Part shown: in pieces, positions 6,799-50,288 of the stretch
How positions within the stretch are numbered: position 1 is the stretch's first letter
How the letters are laid out: the number at the start of each line of letters is the position of its first letter
DNA from: Lentisphaeria bacterium UBA1776
Lineage (GTDB): Bacteria > Verrucomicrobiota > Lentisphaeria > Victivallales > Victivallaceae
Direction of reading: 5' to 3'
Assembly: GCA_002314605.1 (NCBI GenBank)
Contig: DCGO01000095.1
Location: 1-61,647, forward strand
DNA: 61,647 bases
The notes under the pieces: generated by a model
The model's database searches: none
Told to the model about the DNA's origin: nothing
What the model saw: only the letters and a program-made list of their open reading frames with translations
Program-made: the position numbers and the translations under genes

Positions 6799-6804
6799 TT
6801 TCCC

Positions 6805-7683: not shown

Positions 7684-7745
7684 CGCAACACTTCCGGCGG
7701 CGGACAAACGATCCGGCACCGGTTTTTTACACAGGAAGGTGCGTC

Positions 7746-8423: not shown

Positions 8424-8555
8424 ACAGAACTCTTGAGCGTCCATCACGGAGTTCCTGTCCGACCGTCCGGTGCCTCCTCCGGGCAGTTCCGCCTCCGCGC
8501 AGAACTTTCCTCCACCCCCTGCCGCTTTTTTGATTTTTCGGTAAAAACGGGTTGA

Positions 8556-11174
<2,619 letters not shown>

Positions 11175-11211
11175 CCGACATCCTGTCACAATCATTCGGG
11201 AGACATTTATC

Positions 11212-12297: not shown

Positions 12298-12303
12298 AGC
12301 ATC

Positions 12304-18719: not shown

Positions 18720-19166
18720 TCAGCGGATCTTCCGGCAGATAATATCGGTGCCCCGGGCGATCTCCCGGATCTCCTCTTCCGAACAGGTGTCAAAATAGGA
18801 AGTGATGTATTCATTGATGCGGCTTTCCACTCCGGACAAAAATTCCTGTCCCTTGGAAGTAACATCGATGCGGACATTCCGCCGGTCCTCCGGGTTATCG
18901 GTCCGGTTCAGAAATCCCCGCTGGACAAGTTTATCCACAAAAAGCGACGCTCCGGCGCTGGTAAGTCCCGTGAGTTCCATGATCTTCCCCAAGTTGCAGG
19001 GCAGAATGAACCGAATGAGCATCAGGTTGAAAAACTGCCCCCGCAGAAGTCCGCAGGGATTGCGTTTCCACTCCGCCGCCAGAAGTTCCCTCCGGCGCAT
19101 TTCCAGCAGCCGGCAGCTGAGTTTGAACATCTCCAGATCCGGACGCTTTGATTTCGTTTCCGACAT
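18720..19166 (-). CDS. MarR-family transcriptional regulator
   Basis: 148 aa. Has a winged-helix block NLGKIMELTGLTSAGASLFVDKLVQRGFLNRTDNPEDRRNVRIDVTSKGQEF. Starts 20 nt downstream of the secretin gene on the same strand. Confidence 0.8.
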   Translation of the reverse strand: MSETKSKRPDLEMFKLSCRLLEMRRRELLAAEWKRNPCGLLRGQFFNLMLIRFILPCNLGKIMELTGLTSAGASLFVDKLVQRGFLNRTDNPEDRRNVRIDVTSKGQEFLSGVESRINEYITSYFDTCSEEEIREIARGTDIICRKIR

Positions 19167-19186: not shown

Positions 19187-21220
19187 TTATCGGTAGCCCT
19201 TGGTTTCATCGTTGATTTTGGAGTGAATGTCTTCCAGACGATTCTCCCGGTCGGCACGGTCGGCATCCAGTCCGTACTGCTGGAAGAACATGTTGCCCAC
19301 CCGGCTGGTCATACCTTTGTTGACACTCTTGATGATCTTGCCCAGATGGTTACGGACATCGGCCCCCATCTGCTCATCCTCTCTGCTGTATTCCACTTCG
19401 GCGATCAGCACAAGCTGGGACTGCTTGATGGACTCGGTTTCCGTTGAGAATACCCGGCCGATGACCGGCAGATCCTTGAAGAACGGCAGCCCCGCCGTGC
19501 CGCGGACGGATTCGGATTTTTTGAGACCGCCGATGACGAAAGTCTTGGCGTCATACCCGATCTGGACCGTGGTGCTGACATTGGACTCGCTCCGGCGGGC
19601 GGAGCCGTCGGCATTCCAGCCCAGAAGGGAAATGCAGGAGAGGGACACATTCAGCTTGGCGGCATTGCCGGTTACAACCGGAGTGGCCCTGAGATCGAAC
19701 TGGAACCCGTCCGTGACCATAGGATACTGGAGCCAGCCGTGAATGATGCCGGGGGAACAGTTCATGGTGTTGCCGTCGGTGTTGTACCAGGCGGCGGTTA
19801 CGGGAGTCGCAGTACCGTCGGCATTGTATTTGAGATAGCCGGTAAGATACTTGGCCATGGCATCGGTCTTGGAATTGTCCTTGTACGCCACGGCGGAATA
19901 GTCCCCGTAGGTATTGGTGCCGGTCTGGGTACCCATCATGCGCATGGTGTAACCCATGGGAACCATCATGGCGGAACTTCCGGCATTTTTGTAAAAGTCC
20001 TTCAGATCCTGATAAGACATGATCTTGGTGATGGCTTCCCGCTGGATGGTATCCGGATTGGGATCCGTGTAAGTGAATTCAGTGCACGCTTCGGCGATGG
20101 AACTGGCTCCGGCAGTGTAAAAGGTCCGGTCGTAAAAAAAACCGGAATTGACCTGCATGTGACTGGGCTTGCGGTTCTGGGCTACCAGAATGCCGCTGGC
20201 CACGCATTTTGCCTTTCCGATGCTGGTCATGAAATCGAGATAGCGTGTATTCCATTTTGGGTTGAAATTCCAGTAGTCCACAGAGTTGCTTCCGGTCCGC
20301 TGGGCACCGCTGGCATAAAAGGTGCCCCAGTTGCGGCTGGTGACGGTCCCGGCGGAAAAGAGGTCCACACCTTCATTGTTTTTCCAGCTCTGGAAATCCA
20401 CGCCGATACGGTCGTCGTTTTCTGCATAGATCTCCAGGACCCGGTAGGAGATCTTCACTTCCGGGATCTGCCGGTCATATTTCTCCAGCATGGCCTGCAT
20501 GTCATGCCAGTTCCAGTTGGGGGCCTTGATGATCAGGGCATTCAATTCCGCATCCACCACAATTTCCCCGGGCTTCACGGCAAACTGGGGATCCAGGTCC
20601 GATGACCCCACCTTGAGAAGCATGTCACGGAGATTGGATGCCCGGCTGATCTTCGGAAAATAGAGCCGGACTTCCGCGTCCGGCAGAAAGGACAGCCCCG
20701 GCCGGTCCAGTTTGGCCACAATGGCATCCAGGCCCTTGCCGTCTTTGGAATCGGCAAAACGGTAGGCTTCCGCCGAGACCATGACGATCCCGGTGCCGTC
20801 CTTGTATTTAAGGGCAGTGGCTTCCACCGGACTGGCGTTCACCGTCCGGGCCCAGACCGCCGCAGAGAGATAGCTCCGGACCGCATAGGGATCGGCGTGT
20901 TTGAGCACATAGGCTTTGGTGATGACATAGGGGTCCGTATTGTCGCGGATCACATGGACCTGACGGGTATCCTCCTTCACATTGATTTTCAGCTGTGCCT
21001 GAACATGACTGGGAGCATAGCCGCCGGTGGGATCGTCATTGTCCGCACGGGGAGTACCGGCAATGGCATTGGGAGTCAGCATGATCTCCCGGGAGCCCTG
21101 CTGATTCGGGTTGATGATCACGGTGCGAGGCTGCTGTTTCTCCTGCTGCATGTTCTGGCAGCCGTTCAACAGGAGCGCCGCAGAGGAAAAAAGTGAAATC
21201 GAAGAAAATGCATGTTTCAT
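19187..21220 (-). CDS. secretin-family outer-membrane channel, lipoprotein form
   Basis: 677 aa with a lipobox (ALLLNGC). The N-domain-to-secretin junction reads IPEVKISYRVLEIYAENDDRIGVDF. The C-terminal secretin signature reads FVIGGLKKSE..GLPFFKDLPVIGRVFSTETESIKQSQLVLIAEVE. Confidence 0.7.
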   Translation of the reverse strand: MKHAFSSISLFSSAALLLNGCQNMQQEKQQPRTVIINPNQQGSREIMLTPNAIAGTPRADNDDPTGGYAPSHVQAQLKINVKEDTRQVHVIRDNTDPYVITKAYVLKHADPYAVRSYLSAAVWARTVNASPVEATALKYKDGTGIVMVSAEAYRFADSKDGKGLDAIVAKLDRPGLSFLPDAEVRLYFPKISRASNLRDMLLKVGSSDLDPQFAVKPGEIVVDAELNALIIKAPNWNWHDMQAMLEKYDRQIPEVKISYRVLEIYAENDDRIGVDFQSWKNNEGVDLFSAGTVTSRNWGTFYASGAQRTGSNSVDYWNFNPKWNTRYLDFMTSIGKAKCVASGILVAQNRKPSHMQVNSGFFYDRTFYTAGASSIAEACTEFTYTDPNPDTIQREAITKIMSYQDLKDFYKNAGSSAMMVPMGYTMRMMGTQTGTNTYGDYSAVAYKDNSKTDAMAKYLTGYLKYNADGTATPVTAAWYNTDGNTMNCSPGIIHGWLQYPMVTDGFQFDLRATPVVTGNAAKLNVSLSCISLLGWNADGSARRSESNVSTTVQIGYDAKTFVIGGLKKSESVRGTAGLPFFKDLPVIGRVFSTETESIKQSQLVLIAEVEYSREDEQMGADVRNHLGKIIKSVNKGMTSRVGNMFFQQYGLDADRADRENRLEDIHSKINDETKGYR

Positions 21221-21226
21221 GATGAA

Positions 21227-22675
21227 TCACTCCAGATCTTTGCGGAAGGGGTTTTCGATACGGCGCCGGACATCCCGGGTCATACTGGCCGGATCGACGG
21301 GTTTGCTGTTGTTGACATCCTGGGGATGGGCTTCCGCCGTCACCACGATGTAAGTCCGTTCCCGGATGGTGGTCACGGTGCTGAAAAGATATTTGATGAC
21401 GGGGATCCGGCAGAGGATGGGGAGCCCCAGAGTCTGCTCCACGTCATTCTCCTTTTCATAGACAGTCAGAACCTTTTCCACACCGAAGGCCAATGTGGCG
21501 CTGCCCTCCATGATGCTGGAGTTGCTCAACTCCGCTCCGGTGTTGCCCCGCTCCACCACGTTCTTGAAATTCATGGAGTAGCTGAAAAGCACGTTGCCTC
21601 TGCCGTTGTTTCCCAGACAGATGAAGGGATTGAAAATGGTTGCCGACAGCACCGGGGGATCGGCATGCTTGATGCCGTATTCATCTTCGTAATAACTCTT
21701 GCCCACGGAGGTGCGCCCCAGGGTGTTTTTGAAGATGTTCTGGTATTCCGGATACATGGAGATCCGGTAAATGAAGGGGGCCGTATCCGGTTTGGCTGTC
21801 TGCAGCATGAGGAGACTGCGGTAATCCGTTTCATCGCGGACGGGGGTGTTGATCATGGTGAGTCCGGCATTGGCGGCCACGTTGGCGTTGCCGGACTGCT
21901 GAAGACAGCGGATGAAACTCATGTCGATCTGGGGAGCGGTGAAGAATCCGCCGAACCCCCAGGAAGTGCTGGCATTGATGGCAGTATCCGCAAGCCCCTG
22001 GATCACCTGATCCACCGAGAGGTGTCCGGCGTTGTAGGCGGCGTTGAGGAGATTTACACCGGGACCGTTTTTCCAGGCCAGATAGTCAAAACCCCAGTCC
22101 TTCAGATCGCTGTCCCGGATCTCATAGTAGTTGAGCCTGAGGCTGATCTGGGGGATCGGACGGTCCAGCCGGGCGAGAAAGTTCAGCGTCCGGGTGGCGG
22201 CGTTCATCTGGTCGCGCCAGAAGATCGTATTGGTTTCGGCATTTACATAAGCGGCTCCGACGCTGGACCCGGTGGACTGATCGATGATTTCCCGGAACTG
22301 TCTGGCTGCACGGAATTTCGGAGCATACGCCACATGGGCGATGCCGGTGCCTTCCAGACCGGGCCGGTCAATGGTACGGACCAGATCGTCCACCATGGGG
22401 AGAAAATCTTTTCCGGTGGAGACCATGATGGCATTGCCGTTTTTGCCGTCCACGGTGGTGACCCGGCGGACTTCGGAATTGAAGCTGTACCGCTTGACGG
22501 CGGAGTTGATGAAGGGCAGCAGTTCCTGCGCATCGGCGTGCCGCAGTTCATAGACCCGGGTGGCATACCGGACCTGAGCGTCATCCTGCCGCAGGTGGAT
22601 GGTCCGCACCTCGGCGGGCGCCGCACCCAGCACCGTGCAGACGATGCCGAGCAGAATCAAACCGTATTTTTTCAT
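21227..22675 (-). CDS. secretin-family outer-membrane channel (second paralogue)
   Basis: 482 aa with a signal peptide (LLGIVCTVLGAAPAEV). The junction reads IPQISLRLNYYEIRDSDLKDWGFDY. The C-terminal signature reads GLPILCRIPVIKYLFSTVTTIRERTYIVVTAEAH. Its stop lies 6 nt upstream of the next secretin's start. Confidence 0.7.
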   Translation of the reverse strand: MKKYGLILLGIVCTVLGAAPAEVRTIHLRQDDAQVRYATRVYELRHADAQELLPFINSAVKRYSFNSEVRRVTTVDGKNGNAIMVSTGKDFLPMVDDLVRTIDRPGLEGTGIAHVAYAPKFRAARQFREIIDQSTGSSVGAAYVNAETNTIFWRDQMNAATRTLNFLARLDRPIPQISLRLNYYEIRDSDLKDWGFDYLAWKNGPGVNLLNAAYNAGHLSVDQVIQGLADTAINASTSWGFGGFFTAPQIDMSFIRCLQQSGNANVAANAGLTMINTPVRDETDYRSLLMLQTAKPDTAPFIYRISMYPEYQNIFKNTLGRTSVGKSYYEDEYGIKHADPPVLSATIFNPFICLGNNGRGNVLFSYSMNFKNVVERGNTGAELSNSSIMEGSATLAFGVEKVLTVYEKENDVEQTLGLPILCRIPVIKYLFSTVTTIRERTYIVVTAEAHPQDVNNSKPVDPASMTRDVRRRIENPFRKDLE

Positions 22676-22751
22676 AAAACTTCTCCCGGGGAAAAAAACT
22701 GGCCCGGCCGGGGAACCGGCCTGAACTCTGTAATGAATGGAAAGGGAAAAT

Positions 22752-23189
22752 TTAAAGGAAGTTGAATCCGAGGATCGCGATTTCCTTATCGGAGGTCTTT
22801 CCGGTGATGATCCGGAAGAGCGCCTCGCTGTGGATGATCTTCTTGTCTTTGTCGATCCGCTCGAAACGGATTTTCCAGATGTGGGGCGTCACTGCCACAA
22901 ATTCCAGACTGGTAAGATACTGGAAGGAGATGGGCTGTCCCAGCGTTTCCACAATGTATCCCCGGGTGCTGTTGAATTTCTTTTCATCGAAGCGCGCCCG
23001 CTGTTCTTCCGGCAGAAGCTCGACGAATTCCGACGGATTGTTTTTCAGAAACGCCATCAGAAGTTCCCGGCAGAGCGTCAGCTCTTTGCCGGCATTTTTC
23101 GGCAGTGCCCGCTCCGGAGGCTGTTCCAGGATAGTGGTACAGCCCGCCAGCAGTGCCGCCGCAATCGCAAGCAGGAACAAATGTTTCAT
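22752..23189 (-). CDS. small lipoprotein of unknown function
   Basis: 146 aa from ATG 23189, with lipobox MKHLFLLAIAAALLAGC. It is the first gene of the secretin operon. No family recognised by eye. Confidence 0.55.
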   Translation of the reverse strand: MKHLFLLAIAAALLAGCTTILEQPPERALPKNAGKELTLCRELLMAFLKNNPSEFVELLPEEQRARFDEKKFNSTRGYIVETLGQPISFQYLTSLEFVAVTPHIWKIRFERIDKDKKIIHSEALFRIITGKTSDKEIAILGFNFL

Positions 23190-23446
23190 GCAAAACCTCT
23201 TTGAATTTGAAATGCTTTTGACAAAAATGTCTTTGCATGAAAGATAATATACCATCTTTCTCCTGAAATGCAAGCTCCGATGCGAAAATTTGAAAAAAAA
23301 GGTCCGCAAGTGCCGCAGGCTCCAGCGCGGGCACACGCCTGTCAGCCGGACAAAATTCAGCGGTCAACAGGTCATTCTGTTCTTGACTTTTTCTGTTCCT
23401 GCGTTACATTTTGGAGTGCGCAAAATTCAACAGGGAGATTGCAGAC

Positions 23447-27143: not shown

Positions 27144-27250
27144 TACGCTTCCGCCGGAATTGTAAAAAAAACACCATCGGGACTTGAAAAAAACTCCGAT
27201 GGGGTTATGTTTCCCGATATACGGTACAGACTACTCTTTTGGGGACCATT

Positions 27251-28990
27251 ATGGCAAGAGATTCGGAATATATTCTTGAGCTGCTTCTGGATTACGGACT
27301 GGTGAATGAGGAGCAGATCAGCCAGGCCAAGGCGGAATCCAAGTCGGTGGACGGCAGCCTCGACCCGGTGGACCTGCTTCAGAAACTGGGATATCTGAAG
27401 TCGGAGGACCTGACCGCAATGCTGGCACAGCATTACGGCATGGAGATCATGGATCTCAAAAAATACGAGATCCCGGATGAAGTGGTCCAGGCGCTGACAC
27501 CGGATATTGTTCATCACTACAACGTGGTCCCGGTCATGCGGCACGGCGACATGCTGACCGTGGCCATGAGCGACCCGACGGATCTGGAAACATTGGACTC
27601 CATCCGTTACTATCTGGGGCGGGATGTGGAAGCGGTGGTTGCCGATCCGGGGCAGATCAAGCAGCTGATCGACAAATATTATCCCACCGCCGGTGCCGGC
27701 GGCAGCGTGGAAAACCTGATCGAGACTCTGGGGGAGGAGAGCAACGATTTTCTGGTGGAGACCGGCGCGGATACTTCCGGCGGCGGCACCATCGGCGGAG
27801 CGGAGACGGTGGGGGAAGAGACTGCACCGGTGATCAAACTGGTGCACATGCTGATCATTGAGGCATACAAGGCCAAGGCATCGGATATTCACCTGGAACC
27901 CATGGAAAAACGCTACCGGGTCCGCTACCGTATTGACGGGGCCTTGCGGGAGGTGGAAGGGCCTCCCAAATTCATGCAGGCAAGTTTCACCAGCCGCGTC
28001 AAGATCATGAGCCGGCTGGATATCACCGAAAAACGCATCCCCCAGGACGGACGTATCAAGATGCGCGTCAACGACAAGGATATCGACCTGCGTGTTTCCA
28101 GTATCCCCACCACCCACGGCGAAAGTATCGTCATGCGTATTCTGGACCGGGCCAGCATCCAGCTGGACATCCCGAAACTGGGGTTCTATGCGGACGACCT
28201 GGAACTGGTGAACGGGATCATCAACATGCCGGACGGGATCTTCCTCGTCACCGGGCCCACGGGGTCCGGCAAGACCACCAGTCTGTACGCATTTCTGAAC
28301 ACCATCAATACCGTGAGCCGAAAGATCATCACCGTGGAGGACCCGGTGGAATACCAGCTGGACGGTATCAACCAGGTGCAGGTGGACCGGGCCATTGAAA
28401 TGACTTTTGCCGCAGCACTGCGCGCCATGCTCCGTCAGGCGCCGAACATCATCATGGTGGGAGAGATCCGAGACCTGGAAACGGCGGAAATCGCCATCAA
28501 CGCCTCGCTTACCGGACACCTGGTGTTCAGTACCCTGCACACCAACGATGCCCCCGGCACCATCGCCCGACTGGTGGATATGGGGGTCAAACCATTTCTG
28601 GTGGCCTCTTCCGTGCGTGCGGTCATGGCCCAACGGCTGGTGCGCCGGATCTGCAAGAACTGCAAGAAACCTTACAGCCCGAGCAAATATGAGATTCAGC
28701 TTCTGGGGATGACCCAGGAGTATCTGGACAGTCACCAGTTCTACAAGGGTACCGGCTGCGACAAGTGCGGCCGCACCGGATACAAGGGCCGGGTGGGTAT
28801 TTACGAGATTTTCATGGTCACCGAAGATCTGGCCAAGCTCATTTTCCGCAACGAACCCAGCAGTACGATCCGGGAAGCCGCCCGGCGGAACGGCATGCGT
28901 TCTCTGCGGGATGATGCCATCCGCAAGGCGGAAGCCGGGACGACCACGCTGGAAGAGGTAATCTACACGACCCTCATGGACGAAAACTGA
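27251..28990 (+). CDS. GspE/PilB-family type IV filament assembly ATPase (copy 1)
   Basis: 579 aa from ATG 27251. Has a T2SSE_N-like N-terminus, the Walker A block [43 protein letters not shown], and a tetracysteine cluster CKNC...CDKC. Confidence 0.9.
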   Translation: MARDSEYILELLLDYGLVNEEQISQAKAESKSVDGSLDPVDLLQKLGYLKSEDLTAMLAQHYGMEIMDLKKYEIPDEVVQALTPDIVHHYNVVPVMRHGDMLTVAMSDPTDLETLDSIRYYLGRDVEAVVADPGQIKQLIDKYYPTAGAGGSVENLIETLGEESNDFLVETGADTSGGGTIGGAETVGEETAPVIKLVHMLIIEAYKAKASDIHLEPMEKRYRVRYRIDGALREVEGPPKFMQASFTSRVKIMSRLDITEKRIPQDGRIKMRVNDKDIDLRVSSIPTTHGESIVMRILDRASIQLDIPKLGFYADDLELVNGIINMPDGIFLVTGPTGSGKTTSLYAFLNTINTVSRKIITVEDPVEYQLDGINQVQVDRAIEMTFAAALRAMLRQAPNIIMVGEIRDLETAEIAINASLTGHLVFSTLHTNDAPGTIARLVDMGVKPFLVASSVRAVMAQRLVRRICKNCKKPYSPSKYEIQLLGMTQEYLDSHQFYKGTGCDKCGRTGYKGRVGIYEIFMVTEDLAKLIFRNEPSSTIREAARRNGMRSLRDDAIRKAEAGTTTLEEVIYTTLMDEN

Positions 28991-29004
28991 TCGAGGTAAA
29001 GATT

Positions 29005-30705
29005 ATGCTTGATACCGAAAGTTTGGCACTCATTGACCTGCTGATCAACGAACGGGGGGCCGACAATCCGGCGCTGAAGGATCAGCTCAAGGAAGTGGAG
29101 GAAGAACACGCCCGCTCCGGAAAGCCGGTGCTGGAGATCATCGAGAACTACGGGATCTTCAAACGCAAGGAGATCCTGGATATGATAGCGGAAAGTCTGG
29201 GCTCCTATGTCTGGACCACTTTCGATACGGAGGATATTGAGCTGGAGGTCATCAAGAAAGTTGACCAGAATACCGCCCGGAGTTACAAAATCATCCCGCT
29301 GAAGATCGATGAGAGCGGCACGATGCTGCTTGCCATGCGGAATGCACTGGACTTTCAGACAGTGGAATCTCTGCAGTTCATTCTGAACGTGACCATCCAG
29401 CCGGTGGTGGTGGACCCGGATGTGCTGGACGCCCAGCTGGACCGTTATTACCCGGAGAAAACCGACAATGTCCACGACATTCTGGAAGTACTGAAAGACA
29501 GTGCCGAAGGGGAGAAGGTGGACGAAAAGGACATTGAGTCCATGGCCAACGATGCGCCGGTGGTGAAATTCGTGGATGTGGTCATGCAGCAGGCTATCCG
29601 GGACAAGGCGTCGGATATCCATTTCGAGCCCTTTGAGAAAGAATTCCGCATCCGTTACCGGGTGGACGGCGCGCTGTACGAAATGCCCCAGCCGCCGAAA
29701 AGTCTGGCGGTCCCGGTCATCAGCCGCGTGAAAATCATTTCCGGACTGAATATTTCCGAGCGCCGCCGCCCGCAGGACGGCCGTATCGAGCTCAGGGTCA
29801 ACGGCAAACCCATTGACATGCGTGTATCGTGTCTGCCCACAAGCTACGGGGAATCCGTGGTGCTCCGGGTGTTGGACCGGTCGGTGGTGAATCTGGATCT
29901 GGATGCCCTCGGCATGGAACCGGCGCTCCTCAATAAACTCCGGGAGATCATCCATCTGCCCAACGGGATTTTGCTGGTGACCGGTCCCACAGGGTCCGGC
30001 AAGACCACAACATTGTATTCGGCGCTGCGGGAAATCAACGTGGTTTCCGACAAACTGCTGACCGCCGAAGACCCGGTGGAGTACGATATCGAAGGGATCG
30101 TGCAGGTCCCCATCAACGATGCCGTGGGCATGACCTTCGGCAAAGCGCTGCGGGCCTTTCTGCGGCAGGACCCGGACCGGATCCTGGTGGGAGAGATCCG
30201 CGACTTCGAAACTGCCCAGATCGCCATTGAAGCGGCCCTGACGGGACACTTCGTCTTCAGTACACTGCATACCAACGATGCCGCCAGTACGGTGACTCGA
30301 CTGGTGGATATGGGGGTGGAACCCTTCCTCATCTGTTCTTCCGTGTCCGGGATTCTGGCCCAGCGGCTGATCCGCCGGGTCTGTTCGGAGTGCAAGACCA
30401 GTTACGTTCCAACCGATCAGGACCTCAAGCGGCTGCGCATCGACCGTTCGGAAATCGGCGACCACCTGTTTTATTACGGCAAGGGGTGCAGTGTCTGTCA
30501 CGGTACCGGATACAAGGGCCGGAAAGCCATCTGCGAACTTCTGGTGGTCAATCAGGAGATCCGGGACCTTATTTTTGCAGGGGCCCCGCACACCGCCATC
30601 CGGGACAAGGCGAGGGAACACGGAATGCGGACAGTCCGGGAAGACGGTCTGCAGGCGATCTTCAACGGCGAGACATCCGTGGACGAGGTCGTCCGCTATA
30701 CATAA
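29005..30705 (+). CDS. GspE/PilB-family type IV filament assembly ATPase (copy 2)
   Basis: 566 aa with the same architecture: [47 protein letters not shown]...CSVC. Starts 14 nt after copy 1. Confidence 0.9.
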   Translation: MLDTESLALIDLLINERGADNPALKDQLKEVEEEHARSGKPVLEIIENYGIFKRKEILDMIAESLGSYVWTTFDTEDIELEVIKKVDQNTARSYKIIPLKIDESGTMLLAMRNALDFQTVESLQFILNVTIQPVVVDPDVLDAQLDRYYPEKTDNVHDILEVLKDSAEGEKVDEKDIESMANDAPVVKFVDVVMQQAIRDKASDIHFEPFEKEFRIRYRVDGALYEMPQPPKSLAVPVISRVKIISGLNISERRRPQDGRIELRVNGKPIDMRVSCLPTSYGESVVLRVLDRSVVNLDLDALGMEPALLNKLREIIHLPNGILLVTGPTGSGKTTTLYSALREINVVSDKLLTAEDPVEYDIEGIVQVPINDAVGMTFGKALRAFLRQDPDRILVGEIRDFETAQIAIEAALTGHFVFSTLHTNDAASTVTRLVDMGVEPFLICSSVSGILAQRLIRRVCSECKTSYVPTDQDLKRLRIDRSEIGDHLFYYGKGCSVCHGTGYKGRKAICELLVVNQEIRDLIFAGAPHTAIRDKAREHGMRTVREDGLQAIFNGETSVDEVVRYT

Positions 30706-30738
30706 TTTTGCAACAGGTTCAACAGGGAGAATTTTCTG

Positions 30739-31812
30739 ATGATTGAGATGGCGGATCTTCTGCAGTTTTGCGTGGACGAGGGGGCAAGCGACCTGCATAT
30801 TGAGGTGGGGGCGCCTCCCAGCGTCCGGTTGCACGGGGATATTACCCAGCTTGAACTGCCGCCGCTGACGCCGGAGGATTCGGAGCATCTCCTGAAATCC
30901 ATTGCTTCGGATGCCCATCTGCAGCAGATCCAGGCGGAGGGAACTGCGGACTTCGGGGTCGGGTTCGGGGATCAGGCCCGGTTCCGTGTCAGCGCTTTCC
31001 GGCAGAAAGGCTGCTTCGGGATCATTCTGCGCCAGATCCCAAACCAGCTGCTGACCTTTGAACAGCTCGGGCTGCCCGGCGCGGTAAAGGATCTCCTGTG
31101 GCGGCCCCGGGGGCTGGTGCTGGTGACCGGTCCCACCGGATCCGGCAAATCCACCACACTGGCCAGCATGATCAATATCATCAATACCGAGCGGGCCTGC
31201 AACATCATTACCATTGAGGACCCCATTGAATTCTACCACCAGCACAAAAAAAGTCTGGTCATGCAGCGGGAGGTGGGGGTGGATACCACCAGTTTTTCCG
31301 AAGCGCTGCGCCGGGCGCTGCGTCAGGACCCGGATGTGATTCTGGTGGGGGAAATGCGGGATATTGAGACGATCGGCGCAGCGGTTTCAGCGGCGGAAAC
31401 AGGACACCTGGTGTTCGGCACGCTGCACACCACCGGTGCGGCCCGGACGGTGGACCGGATCGTGGATGCCTTCCCGACCAATCAGCAGGAGCAGATCCGC
31501 ACCCAGCTGGCCAGTTCGCTGGTGGGGGTCATTTCCCAGCAGCTTCTGAAACGCTGCGACAAATCCGGCCGGGTCGCCGCCTTTGAGATCATGGTGAACA
31601 CGCCGTCCATTCAGGCGCTGATCCGGGACAACAAGACCTTCCGGATCACCTCGGAACTGCAGACCGGGGCCAAATTCGGGATGAACACCATGGATTCCCA
31701 CCTTGTGGAACTTTTCCGGGCGGGAAAGATCGATTATCCGGAAATGATTACCCACGCCCAGGACCAGGATGCCGTAATTGAGAAACTCCGGGCCGAAGGG
31801 GATCTGAAGTAA
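30739..31812 (+). CDS. pilT: PilT-type retraction ATPase
   Basis: 357 aa with no N-terminal T2SSE_N domain. Has [62 protein letters not shown] and [17 protein letters not shown]. Confidence 0.9.
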
Positions 31813-31833
31813 CACAGGAAAGGAGCCTCGCAA

Positions 31834-33090
31834 ATGCCTCATTATCTTTATACAGCCGTGAATGCTTCCGGCAAGGAGCAGAAGGGCAAGATCCAGGCGG
31901 CCAGTCCGGAGGAAGCAGCCGAGCTTCTGAAGAAACAGCAGCTCTTCATCACCTCCATCAAGGACGCTGATGCCAAAAAAAACGCCCCCGCCGCCAAAAA
32001 AGGCAAGGCCAAGGGCGGTGCCATGAACATTTCTCTGGGGGCCCCCGTCATCAAGAAAAAGGAGCTGGTGGTGCTGACCCGGCAGCTGGCGACATTGCTG
32101 GATGCGGGACTGCCCCTTATCCGTTCACTGCGGACACTGGAGCGGCAGGCCAAAAACCCCGTTGTGGCCAAGGTTCTCAATTCAGCGGCGGAAACCGTGG
32201 AAGGCGGCGCCACTTTTGCCGAAGCGCTGGCCAAGCACCCGAAATCCTTCGATAAACTCTATCTCAACATGATCCGTGCCGGAGAGGCGTCGGGTGCCAT
32301 GGAAGTCATTCTGAACCGTCTGGCGACCTTCATGGAAAAAGCCTCCAAGATCGCCGGCAAAGTCAAGTCCGCCATGATCTACCCGGCGGTGGTGCTCTCC
32401 ATCGCCGGTCTGGTCACCGCCGGTTTGATGGTATTCATCGTGCCGAACTTCCAGAAGATCTTCGGTGAACTCCTTGGTCCGAAGGAACCCATGCCGGCCA
32501 TTACCCAGCTGGTCATGAATACCAGTAAGCTCATGAAGGAGCAGGGGTGGATCTTTCTGGTGGCCGGTGCGGTTATCATCGTGCTGTACAAAATCGTCAA
32601 CAGCAATAAATACGGCAAGTGGGGCATCGACTGGGTCAAGTACAATATGCCGCTTTTCGGGCCTTTGATTTCGCGGACGGCCATTTCCCAGTTTGCCCGT
32701 ACCCTGGGCACGCTGATGAGTTCCGGCGTGCCGGTGCTGAATGCGCTTATCATTGTCCGGGATACCGCCGGCAATGAGGTGGTGACCACCGCCATTCAGA
32801 AAGTCCACGATGCGGTGAAGGAAGGTGAAGGCATTGCCGGCCCCCTGGGTGCCACCGGAATCTTTCCCGCCATGGTGATCAGTATGGTGGAAGTCGGCGA
32901 AGAGACAGGTAAGCTTCCCGACATGCTTGACCGTATTGCCGATACCTACGATGAAGAAGTTGACAATGCTGTGGGAGCCCTGACAAGTATGATCGAACCC
33001 CTGATGATCGTGGGACTGGCAGTGGTCGTGGGTACCATCGTTGTGGCGCTCTTCCTCCCGCTGACCAAGCTGATCGAAAAACTGGGTTGA
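31834..33090 (+). CDS. GspF/PilC-family inner-membrane platform protein
   Basis: 418 aa with two repeated T2SSF-type modules (..LATLLDAGLPLIRSL.. and ..LGTLMSSGVPVLNAL..) and three TM segments. Confidence 0.9.
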   Translation: MPHYLYTAVNASGKEQKGKIQAASPEEAAELLKKQQLFITSIKDADAKKNAPAAKKGKAKGGAMNISLGAPVIKKKELVVLTRQLATLLDAGLPLIRSLRTLERQAKNPVVAKVLNSAAETVEGGATFAEALAKHPKSFDKLYLNMIRAGEASGAMEVILNRLATFMEKASKIAGKVKSAMIYPAVVLSIAGLVTAGLMVFIVPNFQKIFGELLGPKEPMPAITQLVMNTSKLMKEQGWIFLVAGAVIIVLYKIVNSNKYGKWGIDWVKYNMPLFGPLISRTAISQFARTLGTLMSSGVPVLNALIIVRDTAGNEVVTTAIQKVHDAVKEGEGIAGPLGATGIFPAMVISMVEVGEETGKLPDMLDRIADTYDEEVDNAVGALTSMIEPLMIVGLAVVVGTIVVALFLPLTKLIEKLG

Positions 33091-44132: not shown

Positions 44133-44150
44133 GCGGTATCAAGATACCGC
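44133..44150. terminator. hairpin between convergent genes (candidate bidirectional terminator)
   Basis: GCGGTAT-caag-ATACCGC, a perfect 7-bp stem with a 4-nt loop, between the GH4 stop (44091) and the minus-strand pilin stop (44150-44152). No strong U-tract. Confidence 0.35.
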
Positions 44151-44635
44151 TAATTGGTGATGTCGTCGGCGTTATTGGCGGTATTGTCCGGGCCAATGGA
44201 GCGAACCGTGAAAGCCTTGTGATTTGCGGTATCGGGAGAGGTGTAGAGAAGTTTGTTTCCCCAGGCATCGCAGAGTTCGCCATCGGCATCAATGTACTGC
44301 CGCAGGGATTCCAGATCCAGCATCTTGCGGAAATCTTTGACGTACCTTTCCGGCACATTGCCCCAGCGGATGTTGAGCGCGTTGTCCGCAATGTCGGCAC
44401 CGCCGGTGTCCAGCAGCTGAATGTGGTTCCCGGTTCCCAGTGCAGTCGAATAAAACCCGTGCTTGACCTTGCCGGACTCCAGGGCGGCTTCGATTTGCTT
44501 GATGACGGCCCGGGTGGCGGATTCCCTGGCGGAATTGTTGGCGTAGGAGTAGCCCCCGATGGCAATCCCGGCCAGGACCGCCAGCAGCGCCACCACCATC
44601 ACGATTTCAATCAGGGTGAAAGAAAATTTTTTCAT
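44150..44635 (-). CDS. GspG-like (major-type) pseudopilin, second copy
   Basis: 161 aa. Has the N-terminus MKKFS-FTLIEIVMVVALLAVLAGIAIG with Glu at +5, then DAWGNKLLY and SIGPDN..NNADDITN, which resemble the GspG DPWGNPY and GPDG..DDI motifs. Confidence 0.75.
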   Translation of the reverse strand: MKKFSFTLIEIVMVVALLAVLAGIAIGGYSYANNSARESATRAVIKQIEAALESGKVKHGFYSTALGTGNHIQLLDTGGADIADNALNIRWGNVPERYVKDFRKMLDLESLRQYIDADGELCDAWGNKLLYTSPDTANHKAFTVRSIGPDNTANNADDITN

Positions 44636-44646
44636 AAATAAAGTTC

Positions 44647-45255
44647 CTATTTTTTCTTTTTTTCTTCGACAAATTTCGGCTGTTTGGCCTTGGCGGCGGC
44701 TTCCTGAGCATTCAGGCGCTCAAGGACGGCTTTTTTGATGTCGGCAAGATTGTTCATCCGCTTGACGTTGGTGCATTTGACGGGGCGGCGGCTGACCGCC
44801 CAGTACTCCTTGGCGGTCTTGTTGTAATAGTCGTACCACTGACGGTATTCCTGACTGGCGGTCTGTTTATTGGCGGCCAGAAACCCGAGCTGGATCTTGG
44901 CTTTCAGCAGGGCTTCGGCATAGGCGATGTTCTGTTTGACCCAGCGGCGGGAAAGGCCGGAATCGGATTCGAGAAAATAATACTTGTCGAACCGCTTCAA
45001 ATCCAGAATGTCGAAGCGGAGTTTCGGGACCGTCACATTTTTCCCCTGCAGAAAATCCTTGGAAATGGCGGAAATCTGCAGTTTCAGATACTCGTCGGAA
45101 AGGGCGCTCTTCACCCACTGGAGTTCCATGCCGGAAAAGGTTTTGGGAACGTCCGGCGGGATCTCCACCGCCGCCTTCTTCTTCCCCCGGGGGGCGGCGG
45201 CCAGAGTGAGCGCCAGCATCAGAAGCAGCAGGAGTGAAAAAAGATGTTTCAGCAT
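44647..45255 (-). CDS. secreted Lys-rich protein of unknown function
   Basis: 202 aa with a signal peptide (LLLLLMLALTLAAAP) and a very basic C-terminal tail (AAKAKQPKFVEEKKKK). No family recognised. Embedded between the GspK-like and GspG-like genes with 11-12 nt gaps. Confidence 0.5.
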   Translation of the reverse strand: MLKHLFSLLLLLMLALTLAAAPRGKKKAAVEIPPDVPKTFSGMELQWVKSALSDEYLKLQISAISKDFLQGKNVTVPKLRFDILDLKRFDKYYFLESDSGLSRRWVKQNIAYAEALLKAKIQLGFLAANKQTASQEYRQWYDYYNKTAKEYWAVSRRPVKCTNVKRMNNLADIKKAVLERLNAQEAAAKAKQPKFVEEKKKK

Positions 45256-45267
45256 GGTTGATGATCC

Positions 45268-48261
45268 TTAATCCAGCGGTTCCAGCCGCAAAAGTTTGAC
45301 TTTCCGGTTTGCGGCATCGGTGCCGATTTCGGCGTAGAAGCGCACGGTTCCGGTGATCTCGTCAAAATAAACCCCGTTGTTTCCAATCTCAAATTTTCCG
45401 GAATAGACTGTGGCCGTTTCCGCAGCCGCACCGGGATTGTCCGGCCGCTGTTTGCTGACGGAGAAGCCGGCGGTGGTTCCGATATCCCGGATGGACTGCG
45501 CCGCCAGGATCAGCGTCACCGGGTCCGGGGGCCGGGGATAAAAGCTGACCAGACCGGATACCAGTGCGGGAATGGTTTCCTGCTGGGCGTCCGTAGTTGG
45601 GGCGACCTGGCCGTAGGCATTGTACAACTTCTGACCGCTGGCGGGGGAATAATTGACCAGTTCCGCCCGGCTGAAGAATTTCAGATCCGGCGTCGCAGCT
45701 GTATCCCGTCGGGCCAGAATATTTCCGGCGGCAACCGCCTGTGTTTCCCCAATGGCGGTCCCGGCATATTCATAATTCCAGTGATCCGGCCAGTTCCAGA
45801 CCAGTCCCCGGAAAAGTCCGGCATAAAGCAGGGTGCTTTCCACGGTATTTGCCCCAGGCGGATTGTTGATACAGAGCCGGTGGGGGACTTGGACCCGGGG
45901 GGTGAGTTTGACCTGGTCCAGAATCCCGGCATCCCCCTGTGCATAGGTATCCCCCTCATCTTCCATGCCGGAAAGAGGTGTGTCCGTGGGGACCCTTCTG
46001 GTGGCCCTTAAGTTGAGGGTCTGCCACTTGGCGGCACGGTGAATGCCTCCCAGTTCCGCAAAAGACTGCATGGGAGCGTTGCGGATATAAGCGCTGGAAA
46101 TATTTTCCGGCAATGCCGCCGATTCCATGTCCTTGTCGGCAACGGCTCCGGCACTGTTGGCCGGGTTGCAGAAATCGTTTTTGGTTTTGAACGTAAACTT
46201 TATTCCCATGGCGGCTTCGCTGCCCGCCGCGGTCCCGGTCCCGGTCCCGGTCCCGGAAACCGTTTCCGGACCGTCTCCAGATCCCGTCCCCATGGAAGCG
46301 GGGACTTCCACCGGACGCCAGTTCATGGAGGCAACCTCGGTTTGGGACCCCTGATACAGGTTTTCCCGGGGATCATCCGCCTCAAATCCGATATGGGGAT
46401 AGAAGGTCAGGGATTCATCGCTGCTGAAGGATGTATTGAGAAGCGTTGTTCCGTCTCCAAATTGCTCAAAAACCAGATCCCGGACATAATCAACACTGCC
46501 GTCGGATGTTTTCAGATGCACATTGCTGATGGAAAGTTTTTTGATTTTGACCTTGGCGTTCAGAGGGGCCGTCAATTTTATAGTGCTTTGCGGGGTGGAG
46601 AAATTCAAAGACCCGAGGGTAATGGAATTTCCTGCCGCATCGGTCAGAACCAGATTGGCATCGGGAGTTCCGTTGAGCGACAGGATTTTGTACGCATAGC
46701 GCCCGTCTGCGGTCCAGGCGGAGGCGGAACCGCTCAGGGGAATGGAAAATGCACACTTGACTTCCTGAATACGCTTTGCGTCCGCGATGGTCTGTTCCCC
46801 GTCAATGATCTCCACGGTAAACGAAAACTCCCCGGCAATGGACACATCCATATCCGGCATGGTTTCTTCATACATATTGAAGACCTCCACCGCCGCAATG
46901 CGGAGGCCGATGTCATAGCTGTACTCGTACTGGTATTGCGGCGGCTGGCCGTCGGTACCGGGAAAAGCCGTCTCCTGACGCCGGAGCGAAATGGAGGGCC
47001 CGATCATGATCTCATTGATGTACGGGGTCTTTTCATTGCCGGTATAGGTGGGAGGCGTGGTTTCCCAGTCAGCGGAATCCGAGGTGGCAATGCTGTCGGT
47101 ATCGCAGTAGTCGATCAGATTGGCGGCGATCTGCTTCCTTCTGGCGGTCAGGGTGGGATAACTTCCCTTGTCCTTGTGGATCCGGCGCAGGGCGGGGATG
47201 CTGTCAGCCGTTTTCGTGACGTCCCCCACACCCAGCACCGGCAGTGTCATACCTTCTCCGAGAAGCCGCAGGACCAGAGCGTCACTGTTTTTAATATTGC
47301 TCTCGTTACCCAGTTGCTCCCAGTCCGTCCGGGTCAGGTCGAAGCGGTGATATTTGACGTGACTTCCCGGAGTGTTGGGGTTAAAATCCTGTTTGTTGTA
47401 CGCATTGGCGTTGGCCGTGGTGTCCACGTACATATAAACTTCCTCCTCCGTGCCGCTCGGCGGCAGGAACCGGCGGATCACATTGCGCATGCCCAGGGAC
47501 AAGCTGGTCCTGCCGTTGAACATGTCCTGAAAAGTGCTGTAATCGTTGGCCCGGGCGGAATCCTGCTCTTGGCATGTTGTTTTGATGGACTCTTCCGAAG
47601 CGAAACGGTTGTCCAGATCATCCAGCTGCGTTTTCTGCCAGTCCGTCGGATTGGTCAACGTGGTATCCAGATTCAATTCCCGGATACCGAATCCCCGCCG
47701 TCTGGTCCATGTGCTTTTCGTATTCGTGGGAGAAAGGGCCGGATTTCCCCGCAGGATCTCCGAAAAATTCACCGAGCCGGTGGGGAGGATCCAGTAGGCG
47801 TACCGGCCGATGATGGTCGCATTATTGGCCCGGCGGCCGTCGGCATTGTACCCGCTCCAGAGATACTGCCACTGTTCCAAACCGGAAGCCCGGCGCTCTG
47901 TATTGTCGATGGTGGCGGTCAAAAGACTGGTGGCGGGGGTACTCAATTGATCGTTCCGGCCGGCGGCCGGGACATCCTCTTCGCCGGCTTTGAAAACCTC
48001 GGAATTGATGGAGCTCTTCAAATTGCCGATGCCGTCGGCGTCCCCTTGCTGCAGATAGTAGCGCATCAGCATCATGACCCGGTTGACGGCGGAGCGCCCC
48101 AGGAGATTCGCCTGGGTGCGGAAGCGGTAGGCGGCGGCGGTCTTCTGGGAAAGCAGCGTATTGGTGATGAAGGCGATCCCGGTGGCCAGGAGGAGGCTCA
48201 AGATCCCCAAAGAGAGCAGCAGAGCCACTCCATCCTGGCGGTGTTCTGCACGATATTTCAT
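45268..48261 (-). CDS. giant GspK-like minor pseudopilin
   Basis: 997 aa. The N-terminus HRQDGVALLLSLGILSLLLATGIAFI.. is a GspK-style hydrophobic segment without Glu+5. The gene lies directly after the J-like gene (TAATG overlap). A late block reads IRNAPMQSFAELGGI. Confidence 0.65.
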   Translation of the reverse strand: MKYRAEHRQDGVALLLSLGILSLLLATGIAFITNTLLSQKTAAAYRFRTQANLLGRSAVNRVMMLMRYYLQQGDADGIGNLKSSINSEVFKAGEEDVPAAGRNDQLSTPATSLLTATIDNTERRASGLEQWQYLWSGYNADGRRANNATIIGRYAYWILPTGSVNFSEILRGNPALSPTNTKSTWTRRRGFGIRELNLDTTLTNPTDWQKTQLDDLDNRFASEESIKTTCQEQDSARANDYSTFQDMFNGRTSLSLGMRNVIRRFLPPSGTEEEVYMYVDTTANANAYNKQDFNPNTPGSHVKYHRFDLTRTDWEQLGNESNIKNSDALVLRLLGEGMTLPVLGVGDVTKTADSIPALRRIHKDKGSYPTLTARRKQIAANLIDYCDTDSIATSDSADWETTPPTYTGNEKTPYINEIMIGPSISLRRQETAFPGTDGQPPQYQYEYSYDIGLRIAAVEVFNMYEETMPDMDVSIAGEFSFTVEIIDGEQTIADAKRIQEVKCAFSIPLSGSASAWTADGRYAYKILSLNGTPDANLVLTDAAGNSITLGSLNFSTPQSTIKLTAPLNAKVKIKKLSISNVHLKTSDGSVDYVRDLVFEQFGDGTTLLNTSFSSDESLTFYPHIGFEADDPRENLYQGSQTEVASMNWRPVEVPASMGTGSGDGPETVSGTGTGTGTAAGSEAAMGIKFTFKTKNDFCNPANSAGAVADKDMESAALPENISSAYIRNAPMQSFAELGGIHRAAKWQTLNLRATRRVPTDTPLSGMEDEGDTYAQGDAGILDQVKLTPRVQVPHRLCINNPPGANTVESTLLYAGLFRGLVWNWPDHWNYEYAGTAIGETQAVAAGNILARRDTAATPDLKFFSRAELVNYSPASGQKLYNAYGQVAPTTDAQQETIPALVSGLVSFYPRPPDPVTLILAAQSIRDIGTTAGFSVSKQRPDNPGAAAETATVYSGKFEIGNNGVYFDEITGTVRFYAEIGTDAANRKVKLLRLEPLD
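46231..46254. repeat. hexanucleotide microsatellite (GGTCCC)x4 inside the GspK-like gene
   Basis: Four perfect tandem copies read directly from the sequence. They encode (Gly-Thr)4 in SGTGTGTGTAAG on the minus strand. Confidence 0.9.
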
Positions 48262-49037
48262 TAAAACACCCCTAAGTAAATGATCCGGACAAATTCGTAT
48301 TCGTTTTCCTGACGGAACTGCAGCTGGGCGGCGTTTTCCGTCCCGGCCCCCCGCTGCGCGATCCAGGTGTCAAAGGCGTTCTTCGGCATCATTTTCAGGG
48401 TGATCTGCACCGCATGGGGGAACACTCTTGAGGAATACGCGCCGGAGTTCAGGATGTTGAACCCGCTTCCGAAGAGCCGGAATCGGAGTTCCGTAATATG
48501 CCCGACAATGGTTTCCGTGTTATTGGTGAAAACAGTGGATGCCGGACAGGCGGCAGCATTGATGAAATTCGTATTCCCGTTGTCGTTGGCCACCTTCAGC
48601 ACCTGATCGGCGATCACGCCGTTGTCAAGTTTGTTTTCCAGCCAGAAAGACATGTAAAACGCCTTCTGAAATTCCGTTGCCGATGTATGGGAGGAGGGAT
48701 AAAAGGGGGAGTTCCGTGAAAGGTTCACCGGGAAGATCAGCCGCCCGGAGGTATTGTTGTCCGCCGTGGCGCCGAACCAGAAGATCTCCTGATTGTAGGT
48801 GTCGCCGGCTGCCTGATAATAAACGCTCTGCAGTGCGCTGGACATCAGGTCCATGGCGATCCGGGCGTCCGCATACATGTTGTTTTTATCGTCCGTCCGG
48901 CTCCACAGTTTCTGGGTGTCCGTAAAGAATCCAATCACCATCATCATCATGATGGAAAAAATCGCCATGGCGACGATCAGCTCCACCAGGGTAAAGGAGG
49001 ATTTCCGGAACCTGTGTTGAATTTTTCTCATGGTCAT
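48261..49037 (-). CDS. GspJ-like minor pseudopilin
   Basis: 258 aa. Has the N-terminus ..RFRKSS-FTLVELIVAMAIFSIMMMMVIGFF (Glu+5) and sits in the J position of a G-H-I-J-K array. Confidence 0.7.
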   Translation of the reverse strand: MTMRKIQHRFRKSSFTLVELIVAMAIFSIMMMMVIGFFTDTQKLWSRTDDKNNMYADARIAMDLMSSALQSVYYQAAGDTYNQEIFWFGATADNNTSGRLIFPVNLSRNSPFYPSSHTSATEFQKAFYMSFWLENKLDNGVIADQVLKVANDNGNTNFINAAACPASTVFTNNTETIVGHITELRFRLFGSGFNILNSGAYSSRVFPHAVQITLKMMPKNAFDTWIAQRGAGTENAAQLQFRQENEYEFVRIIYLGVF

Positions 49038-49039
49038 GA

Positions 49040-49600
49040 TCAGGCTCCGTAGTCGTAAAGATCAAACCGGTAAATCTGCTTTTCCCGGTCGGCATAAGGT
49101 TTCGTCAGGGGGTAGCTCACTTCGATGAAAATGATTGCGGAACCGGTGGTCATGGAAACCGGAGCCGCCTGGCCCGGAACATGGATGAAATTGCTTTCCC
49201 TCCAGACTCTGGCTTCGGCGGCGAAATCCACCACCGATGCACCATTCACCGTATGGCTCTGCTCATACTTGAAAAGCCCCGCCGTCCCGCAATAGAATAC
49301 CGGCGTATTGGGAATATTGGTCCAGCCGATGGAGGCCGGTTCGCCCGGTTTTGCGGTAGGAAGTCCGTTCAGCAGGGTACTGGAGCGGGGAGAGGTCCCG
49401 GACCGCTGCCACTGATCGCGGATGCTGGTTTCCAGATATCCGGCAAAATACAGCGCCGCATCGGGAACGCTGTTGTCGGCGGTGGCGCTGTTGGTGGCAT
49501 TCAGCCCCACCGGGAAGAGGACCAGGATGCTGGACATGCCGATGGCGATGACCCCCAGCGCCAGCATGATCTCGATCATATTGAAGAACTGCTTTTTCAT
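49040..49600 (-). CDS. GspI-like minor pseudopilin
   Basis: 186 aa. Has the N-terminus MKKQF-FNMIEIMLALGVIAIGMSSILVLFP (Glu+5). The start overlaps the H-like stop (ATGA). Confidence 0.65.
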   Translation of the reverse strand: MKKQFFNMIEIMLALGVIAIGMSSILVLFPVGLNATNSATADNSVPDAALYFAGYLETSIRDQWQRSGTSPRSSTLLNGLPTAKPGEPASIGWTNIPNTPVFYCGTAGLFKYEQSHTVNGASVVDFAAEARVWRESNFIHVPGQAAPVSMTTGSAIIFIEVSYPLTKPYADREKQIYRFDLYDYGA

Positions 49601-50268
49601 TTGATCCTGCCGTTTTCATCAATTTCGGAAACCAGGGCACGACCGGTAAAACGGTTGACGGTGACGGCCATGACGTTGGCGGTGGCATTGCTGCCGCTCC
49701 GCTGGCTCTTATAGATATAATTGCCGTTGGACAATGTGGCCTCCCCCACGCCGATGTAGAAATTCTGATTGGGAGCGACCACGTTCCCGTAGGCGGCGTA
49801 CACGATCCCGGGGCGGGAAGCCGTCGCTCGCCCGACCACCCCGGTGATCGTCTGCAGTGCCGAGGTTCCCGGCGCGGCTCCGTTGGTGGGAAACGAGGGC
49901 TGCGTCCCTTCGCCGCCGTTGTCGAAGATCAGCATCTGGGCGTCTTCCTTCAGCGGGACCCAGTCGGAACCCTCCACCCATCCTTGAAATGCATAAGTAT
50001 TGGAAACATAGCAGTTCCGCAGCGCCTGCGTGTCGGTGAGGCCGGAAACGGTACCGCCCAAGTCAATCACCGTCGCCACGTATTTCCGGTCGTTGATGGC
50101 CCGGGCCTGGGCGAGGTCGAGAGTGTTTTTGATGAGGCCGCAGGTCACGGCCACGCTGTTCCCGTGCATCAAGGCTGAAAAGGCCGGCAGCGCCATGGCC
50201 GCCAGCATGGCCGCCAGCGCCATCACCACCATGATCTCAATTAACGTATAATGCCGAACCTCTTTCAT
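49597..50268 (-). CDS. GspH/FimT-like minor pseudopilin
   Basis: 223 aa from ATG 50268. Has the N-terminus MKEVRH-YTLIEIMVVMALAAMLAAMALPAF (Glu+5). The ORF track extends to a GTG at 50301. Confidence 0.7.
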   Translation of the reverse strand: MKEVRHYTLIEIMVVMALAAMLAAMALPAFSALMHGNSVAVTCGLIKNTLDLAQARAINDRKYVATVIDLGGTVSGLTDTQALRNCYVSNTYAFQGWVEGSDWVPLKEDAQMLIFDNGGEGTQPSFPTNGAAPGTSALQTITGVVGRATASRPGIVYAAYGNVVAPNQNFYIGVGEATLSNGNYIYKSQRSGSNATANVMAVTVNRFTGRALVSEIDENGRIK

Positions 50269-50288
50269 ACGGCCCCTGCTGTTCCGCT

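Follow-up and report, generated by a model that had tools for sequence, protein, structure and literature searches.

A conserved tandem pair of full-length secretin paralogues in Lentisphaerota that may form one two-subunit outer-membrane channel

Here, we analyzed two adjacent secretin genes, named A and B, in a contig of Lentisphaeria bacterium UBA1776, a gut member of Victivallales (assembly GCA_002314605.1, contig DCGO01000095.1, positions 1 to 61,647 of the forward strand); the whole stretch of 61,647 nucleotides (nt) is hereafter called the window. Secretins form the outer-membrane gates of type II and type III secretion, type IV pili, competence and filamentous phages, and they are the textbook case of a giant homo-oligomer. 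Comparison with relatives firmly supports that A and B have been passed on as a single unit over a wide evolutionary span, with their order and spacing kept and with the unit itself even duplicated. We consider it somewhat more probable than the contrary that they are ancient full-length secretin paralogues acting as one obligate two-subunit complex. The more specific proposal, in which the Lentisphaerota secretin channel would be an obligate hetero-oligomer of the two ancient paralogues, mixed in one ring or arranged in two stacked rings, is put forward tentatively, and we place it a little below an even chance.

Results

The gene pair and its junction

The pair consists of the following features, given in window coordinates.

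21227..22675, minus strand: open reading frame (ORF) A, a secretin paralogue of 482 amino acids (aa) with a plain signal peptide
19187..21220, minus strand: ORF B, a secretin paralogue of 677 aa with the lipobox LLNGC
21221..21240, minus strand: A-B junction, comprising the last codons of A with GGAG, the TGA stop and a 6-nt spacer, with the ATG of B at 21220

A previous sequence-only reading of this region had described two co-directional ORFs separated by 6 nt, and their positions agree exactly with the ORF list. Its assignment of a plain signal peptide to the 482-aa copy and of the lipobox LLNGC to the 677-aa copy held, and all the motifs that it had quoted for the N-domain-to-secretin junctions, the C-terminal signatures and the lipobox are present in the translations: that of A contains IPQISLRLNYYEIRDSDLKDWGFDY and GLPILCRIPVIKYLFS...TYIVVTAEAH, and that of B contains IPEVKISYRVLEIYAENDDRIGVDF, GLPFFKDLPVIGRVFS...QLVLIAEVE and the lipobox AALLLNGC. 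The 3' end of A reads ...CTGGAG TGA and is followed by the gap ttcatc and the ATG of B; a GGAG Shine-Dalgarno sequence adjoins the TGA stop, 9 nt upstream of this ATG. With regard to codon-position GC content, both A and B have a GC content at third positions (GC3) of 0.72-0.75 and by this measure are real genes. A long plus-strand ORF that overlaps A was rejected on GC3 as an antisense shadow in GC-rich DNA.

Both genes encode divergent, full-length secretins

In the Pfam scan, B passed the cut-off of the Secretin model (PF00263) with 50.0 bits versus 27.5, and A, with 21.3 bits, remained under it; for Secretin_N (PF03958), A was just under the cut-off of 28.2 with 27.2 bits, and B scored 17.6 bits. 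A precomputed PF00263 match exists for some close homologues of A and for most of its deep A-like relatives. The NCBIfam models of GspD, PilQ, MshL and SctC all matched A and B far below their cut-offs, such as 39.3 (A) and 54.6 bits (B) for the GspD model (TIGR02517, cut-off 351), and 29.2 and 58.9 bits for the PilQ model (TIGR02515, cut-off 284). Neither A nor B is an orthologue of any named secretin type. The Pfam scan of the two proteins detected no STN/N0 or AMIN domain.

The suggestion of the sequence-only reading that A and B are secretin paralogues was borne out by three kinds of comparison. BLASTP aligned the two proteins with 24% identity across 278 aa (E 3e-17) and gave a second match at the C-terminal motif, and hhalign, using a 54-sequence alignment for each family, returned a probability of 98.8% (E 1.3e-16) over 444 aligned columns, which is nearly the full length of A. 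In structural searches of PDB with Foldseek at E <= 1e-3, all the 40 matches of the A model (best E 6e-13, about 490 columns) and all the 29 matches of the B model (best E 7e-13) were secretins. By these alignments, A and B are full-length paralogues.

The structures matched include GspD, EpsD, ExeD, PulD, XcpQ, InvG, PilQ, BfpB and pIV, in near whole-protein alignments; model A was aligned to GspD, InvG, PilQ and pIV, and the N domains matched those of GspD, XcpQ and EscC. The flexibility and modest confidence of the monomer models account for the low TM-scores (0.2-0.3) against solved secretins. The predicted local distance difference test (pLDDT) values of the AlphaFold2 monomer models were 61.9 for A and 53.5 for B, as expected for subunits of large rings. 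Profile searches against PDB sequences gave the phage f1 pIV secretin core as the best match of A (E 1.2e-3) and GspD as the best matches of B (E about 5e-9). By these matches, both A and B have the secretin fold and belong to the bacterial secretin superfamily.

The models also define the anatomy of each protein. In A, the first N domain begins at the mature N-terminus (RTIHLRQDDAQ...); N domains at about 37-106 and 115-172 precede the secretin core at about 176-452, and a short unstructured tail follows, without a helical tail resembling an S-domain. In B, the lipobox Cys21 is followed by a linker of about 75 aa, N domains at about 99-171 and 183-248, a secretin core at about 254-612 and a helical C-terminal tail (613-677). 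Two beta-alpha-beta-beta-alpha units were modelled in each protein, and the N domains are predicted to be ring-building. A split secretin was excluded, since A and B each span N domains and a complete secretin core.

The linker of B is of low model confidence and contains a conserved PGTPR...YAPSxVQAQL motif, the YAPSxVQAQL part of which recurs in several distant B-type proteins. The long insertion within the secretin domain of B, which had been noticed from the sequence, is real and occupies roughly residues 355-500 (window 19700-20160); part of it was modelled confidently, at pLDDT values in the 80s, and forms a small alpha/beta domain in the model. Among orthologues this insertion is hypervariable, ranging from nearly absent (proteins of 530-553 aa) to more than 150 aa and longer than that of the window, and it is a lineage-variable elaboration outside the conserved core. 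The lipobox is found in the B protein of the window and in most Victivallales loci, and it is missing from a minority of the latter and from nearly all distant pairs. Both the lipobox and the large insertion of B are thus derived traits and not universal ones.

A and B are conserved to a similar degree. Among 54 orthologues, the A family has a mean column identity of 62% and more than 100 invariant positions, including the C-terminal motif G417-x-P419...R423-x-P425...Y429...S432, and the equivalent motif of the B family (G-x-P...P...S) is invariant as well. In a rough neighbour-joining tree (MAFFT, fast settings), which serves only to show separate clades, the A and B proteins fell into separate and deeply diversified clades, and the duplication is therefore old.

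In an exhaustive HMM (hidden Markov model) search with the A profile, 537 cluster representatives were found at E <= 1e-3 and 59 at E <= 1e-30. In the same search, two very long proteins (P0350, 3396 aa; P0382, 3510 aa) were matched in 12-14 separate stretches each, and the top-scoring stretch of each corresponded to the N-terminal half of the profile. These two proteins may carry long arrays of secretin-N-like domains.

A and B are always found together

Homologues of A and B were found in metagenome-assembled genomes of Lentisphaeria, Victivallales and Victivallaceae, largely from animal gut and rumen, and most of them are annotated as "hypothetical protein". An exact look-up of the A protein in public assemblies gave no match. 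The best relatives are 71-75% identical, and the species of the window is therefore probably without a close sequenced relative in the searched collections. Comparative loci were fetched through these homologues from Lentisphaerota genomes and metagenomes, and were typed by scoring every stop-to-stop ORF with HMMs built from the A and B alignments. A locus was considered informative if its contig was long enough to test the downstream neighbour of A.

An A-type gene was followed directly by a B-type gene in all of the 112 informative loci (112/112). Among the 85 non-redundant loci derived from genomes, 81 had one A-type and then one B-type gene on the same strand, and in the other four the contig ended right after A. 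A metagenome scan seeded with distant A-like proteins, for which a narrower alignment of these proteins was used, gave A and then B in 31 of 38 loci; the remaining seven ended after A, and there were no counter-examples. The tandem arrangement that had first been noticed in the window is in this way shared by its relatives, and the two paralogues were never found beside separate secretion or pilus systems of their own.

Three of the 81 genome loci were reached via deep A-like relatives, and they too have an A-type gene (465-472 aa) followed by a B-type gene (530-685 aa). HMM scores at these loci were 284-359 (A) versus 40-60 bits for the upstream gene and 348-407 (B) versus 45-67 bits for the downstream gene. 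In 112 of 114 pairs, A and B are spaced by -4 to +39 nt, most often by +6, +3, +22, +18, -1 or -4. By comparison, the genes around the pair vary from locus to locus (for example, PBP/Mur ligase, phosphate ABC transporter and nitrogenase genes). With scrambled flanks and a constant pair, it is the pair itself that is preserved. Among the Lentisphaerota relatives examined, the two-paralogue secretin module is conserved.

Two metagenome loci, L100 and L102 (the latter on a 343-kb contig), have four secretin genes at about 5958-12804 in the order A1-B1-A2-B2. A1 and A2 share 52% identity, as do B1 and B2, and A and B proteins share 23-26%. From this order and these identities it follows that an A-B pair was duplicated as a unit and that all four genes were kept. 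At both loci, B1 is without a lipobox, and B2 may carry one (MILSGC).

The comparative data also bear on whether A is a duplicate that is decaying or has lost its function, or the pair a remnant of a filamentous prophage with a pIV-like secretin. Such an origin could be suspected from the position of A just under both Pfam gathering thresholds and from its best PDB sequence match, the phage f1 pIV. However, A is intact in every locus, is conserved about as much as B and has a full secretin fold; there are no phage genes in the flanks, and the divergence of the A family tracks host lineages, so that its inheritance looks vertical. We regard this explanation as hardly credible: a degenerate pseudogene is effectively excluded by orthologue conservation, fold and constant pairing, and a filamentous-phage origin is excluded by the lack of phage genes nearby and by the vertical-looking inheritance. 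By fold, C-terminal motif and conservation, neither copy is degenerate.

Type IV filament genes in the window

Two operons of the window encode components of type IV filament machines.

27239..33090, plus strand: PilB-PilB'-PilT-PilC operon, 4.5 kb from the secretin pair
44150..50990, minus strand: pseudopilin/pilin operon of seven genes, 21.5 kb from the secretin pair

The first operon starts with two adjacent PilB/GspE-type ATPases (27239-30705, plus strand) of 583 and 566 aa, which are 44% identical and both have an MshEN N-terminal domain. It further encodes a PilT-family ATPase of 357 aa, which scores above the cut-off of its NCBIfam model, and a PilC/GspF platform protein of 418 aa, the only PilC platform gene near the pair. 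The duplicated PilB-type ATPase is a second duplicated ring-forming component near the duplicated secretin. The pseudopilin operon contains a GspG-like protein (161 aa) and three proteins with a prepilin N-methylation motif; its proteins of 997, 202 and 186 aa had no Pfam or NCBIfam match.

No further secretin turned up among the ORFs scanned in the 61.6-kb window, which covered it from about 17 kb onwards apart from a few short intervals. Because of this result and the distance of 4.5 kb, PilB, PilB', PilT and PilC are the likely inner-membrane partner machine of the secretin pair. The pseudopilin operon is presumably linked to the pair as well.

Discussion

One channel or two

That A and B act together physically is suggested by their strict order and tight spacing amid a scrambled neighbourhood, by the absence of either gene alone from the 112 informative loci, by the duplication of the pair as a unit and by the presence of a single platform gene nearby. 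Gene order conserved over large evolutionary distances reportedly predicts physical interaction, as Dandekar and co-workers are said to have found in 1998.

The same observations can be set against another explanation, in which A and B would form two independent homo-oligomeric secretin channels, placed side by side and co-regulated, each for a different type IV filament output (for example, a secretion pseudopilus and a retractile pilus, or DNA uptake). It would agree with the fact that every solved secretin matched by A or B is a homomer, and with the two PilB/GspE paralogues and PilT of the window; besides, the targeting signal, the insertion and the tail set A and B apart, as would be expected of specialised channels. 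However, channels for different machines are normally encoded next to the machine that they serve, and each is gained or lost without the other, whereas here neither gene occurs alone, order and spacing are fixed, duplication involved the unit, and one PilC gene lies near the pair. It seems to us rather unlikely that the two genes serve separate channels.

Several points also weigh against a single two-subunit complex. First, the solved secretins are homo-oligomers with C12 to C15 symmetry, and the odd symmetries among them rule out strict 1:1 alternation of A and B. Second, a mixed barrel is less easy to envisage when the cores of A and B are only about 24% identical and B has so large an insertion, and the monomer models are of low to moderate confidence (pLDDT 61.9 and 53.5). 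Third, the two PilB-type ATPases of the window could stand for two functional modes or for two channels. Fourth, the secretin pair lies outside the PilB/PilT/PilC operon itself, and most other loci have no type IV filament genes within 10 kb of the pair, L069 being a clear exception. Finally, the secretin scan was limited to the window, and a third, canonical secretin may be present elsewhere in the genome.

With these points in mind, the joint action of A and B could be pictured as follows. The two genes would be transcribed together and probably translationally coupled, given the spacing of -4 to +39 nt and the Shine-Dalgarno sequence beside the stop codon of A, and similar amounts of the two proteins would be made. 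They would then co-assemble into a single outer-membrane conduit, either a mixed ring or two coaxial rings. This conduit would serve the type IV filament machine of Lentisphaerota, which in the window would comprise PilB, PilB', PilT, PilC and the pseudopilins.

Flanking genes and targeting to the outer membrane

The following features surround A and B in the window.

22752..23189, minus strand: small conserved lipoprotein of 145 aa (MKHLFLLAIAAALLAGC followed by TTILEQPP), first gene of the module
22701..22719, minus strand: terminator-like GC hairpin with a T run, located between the lipoprotein gene and A by a pattern scan
18720..19166, minus strand: MarR-family regulator of 148 aa (Pfam MarR, 39.3 bits), 20 nt downstream of B, last gene of the module
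23411-24547, plus strand: RdgC-like gene, divergent from the module, with a common intergenic region of about 220 nt (23190-23410)

The lipoprotein gene starts with an ATG at 23189 and has AAAGAGG upstream; most Victivallales loci have it ahead of A. All of the 27 members aligned keep the lipobox Cys. The mature N-terminus is conserved as C-T-x-I-x-E-L-P. The protein had no significant match in Pfam, NCBIfam or PDB and hence belongs to no described pilotin family; weak hints of an NTF2-like fold were obtained (DUF3887, DUF4864, DUF4440, and a de novo NTF2 at E 0.29). Because it is a small lipoprotein and its gene lies beside the secretin genes, it resembles a pilotin, and we consider it a candidate pilotin or assembly factor.

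This gene is relevant to the proposal of the sequence-only reading that the lipidated paralogue acts as a built-in pilot. In its strong form, the pair would exist because the lipidated B carries or anchors the non-lipidated A to the outer membrane. Self-piloting liposecretins such as HxcQ are known, the lipobox of B in the window is canonical and is accompanied by a linker of about 75 aa, and A, with its plain signal peptide, lacks a helical tail resembling an S-domain. However, the signal peptide of B is a plain one in nearly all distant pairs and in a minority of the 81 genome loci, and the pair persists there; in Victivallales a dedicated small lipoprotein gene precedes the pair; and B keeps every feature of a pore-forming secretin. 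Lipidation of B as a universal reason for the pair was rejected, given the loci and distant pairs without the lipobox, and we judge the built-in pilot improbable. Of what the earlier reading had proposed, co-function of the two paralogues in one channel fits their constant adjacency, and the idea of a built-in pilot was weakened by the patchy lipobox and the separate conserved lipoprotein upstream.

As for regulation, most Victivallales loci have the MarR gene downstream of B. The loci L069, L073-L076, L079 and L081-L084 belong to a divergent Victivallales clade in which it lies upstream of A instead; in these loci the small lipoprotein is absent or barely detectable, and B is mostly without a lipobox. 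Both the MarR and the lipoprotein genes are absent from the most distant pairs. Within a joint A-B conduit, the Victivallales branch would have gained the upstream lipoprotein (likely a pilotin or assembly factor), the lipid anchor on B and MarR, which probably controls the operon. The hairpin at 22701..22719 may act as an attenuator of read-through into the secretin genes, and hairpin-type matches in this region are not above shuffled expectation. The sole sigma-70-like promoter match in the 23190-23410 region faces the RdgC-like gene.

Implications

Two divergent secretin subunits that are always co-inherited challenge the assumption of one gene for one ring. If the obligate hetero-oligomer is real, it would be the first natural heteromeric secretin, and would imply that the outer-membrane ring gate of a type IV filament can evolve from homomer to heteromer by duplication. 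A lineage with such a pair would offer a natural system for studying this transition, how subunit asymmetry relates to gating and symmetry, and the routes of outer-membrane targeting (lipid anchor, separate lipoprotein, or neither). There is also a consequence for annotation: with "hypothetical" labels on most of these proteins and with A under the Pfam thresholds, the outer-membrane component of these gut and rumen bacteria may be overlooked or counted wrongly when secretion systems are searched for automatically.

Comparison with known secretin systems

In the literature searched, we did not find an obligate pair of full-length secretin paralogues described, which is in itself no proof of novelty. 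A search on pairs or heteromultimers of secretins gave unrelated papers, mostly on ion channels. Searches on heteromeric or paralogous secretins gave RhcC1/RhcC2 (see below) as the sole case, those on type IV filaments of the PVC (Planctomycetes, Verrucomicrobia and Chlamydiae) group gave nothing relevant, and those on secretin in Lentisphaerae or Victivallis returned mostly gut-hormone and microbiome papers. One mention of Victivallis refers to a lipase homologue and not to secretins (PMC6617341).

Compared with GspD/PulD/EpsD and PilQ, A and B are alike in signal peptide, ring-building N domains and C-terminal secretin core, share the G-x-P-x-L...P-x-x-G-x-x-F motif, and have these proteins as their best structural matches. 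As with the homo-oligomeric secretins of type II secretion systems (T2SS) and type IV pili, a PilB/PilT/PilC machine and pseudopilins are located nearby in the window, although most other loci have none within 10 kb. They differ from GspD and PilQ in that two paralogous subunit genes, not one, are always found together, N0/STN and AMIN domains were undetected, NCBIfam scores are 29-59 bits versus cut-offs of 284-351, and the genes lie outside the operon of the machine.

Liposecretins include HxcQ of P. aeruginosa, BfpB and TcpC. The B protein of the window shares with them an N-terminal lipobox that is followed by a long flexible linker before the N domains, and the BfpB-BfpG structure 9u5s is among the Foldseek matches of A. 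The lipobox of B is therefore not new in itself. Unlike in liposecretins, it is not conserved among the orthologues of B, and B is always found beside a non-lipidated secretin paralogue.

In the type III secretion system of rhizobia, secretin function is provided by two secretin-derived genes, RhcC1 and RhcC2 (Abby and Rocha, 2012; PMC3459982). Much of the C-terminal region of RhcC1 has been lost, and RhcC2 came from a Tad locus by recruitment; the two are thus complementary and of different origin (PMC3459982). In contrast, A and B are both full length, paralogous to each other and adjacent.

The T2SS complex of Deinococcus radiodurans (PDB 8co1) consists of a main secretin together with a belt (DR_1364) and a cap (DR_0940), according to the abstract of its description (PMC10828601). 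It likewise combines several different proteins, whereas its extra subunits are presented there as belt and cap and not as a second secretin. This structure is the top Foldseek match of A. With regard to mixed rings, Kazmierczak and co-workers reportedly found in 1994 that two different pIV secretins, of phages f1 and IKe, can enter one multimer. Those multimers were the result of artificial co-expression of close homologues, whereas A and B are a natural and divergent two-gene pair.

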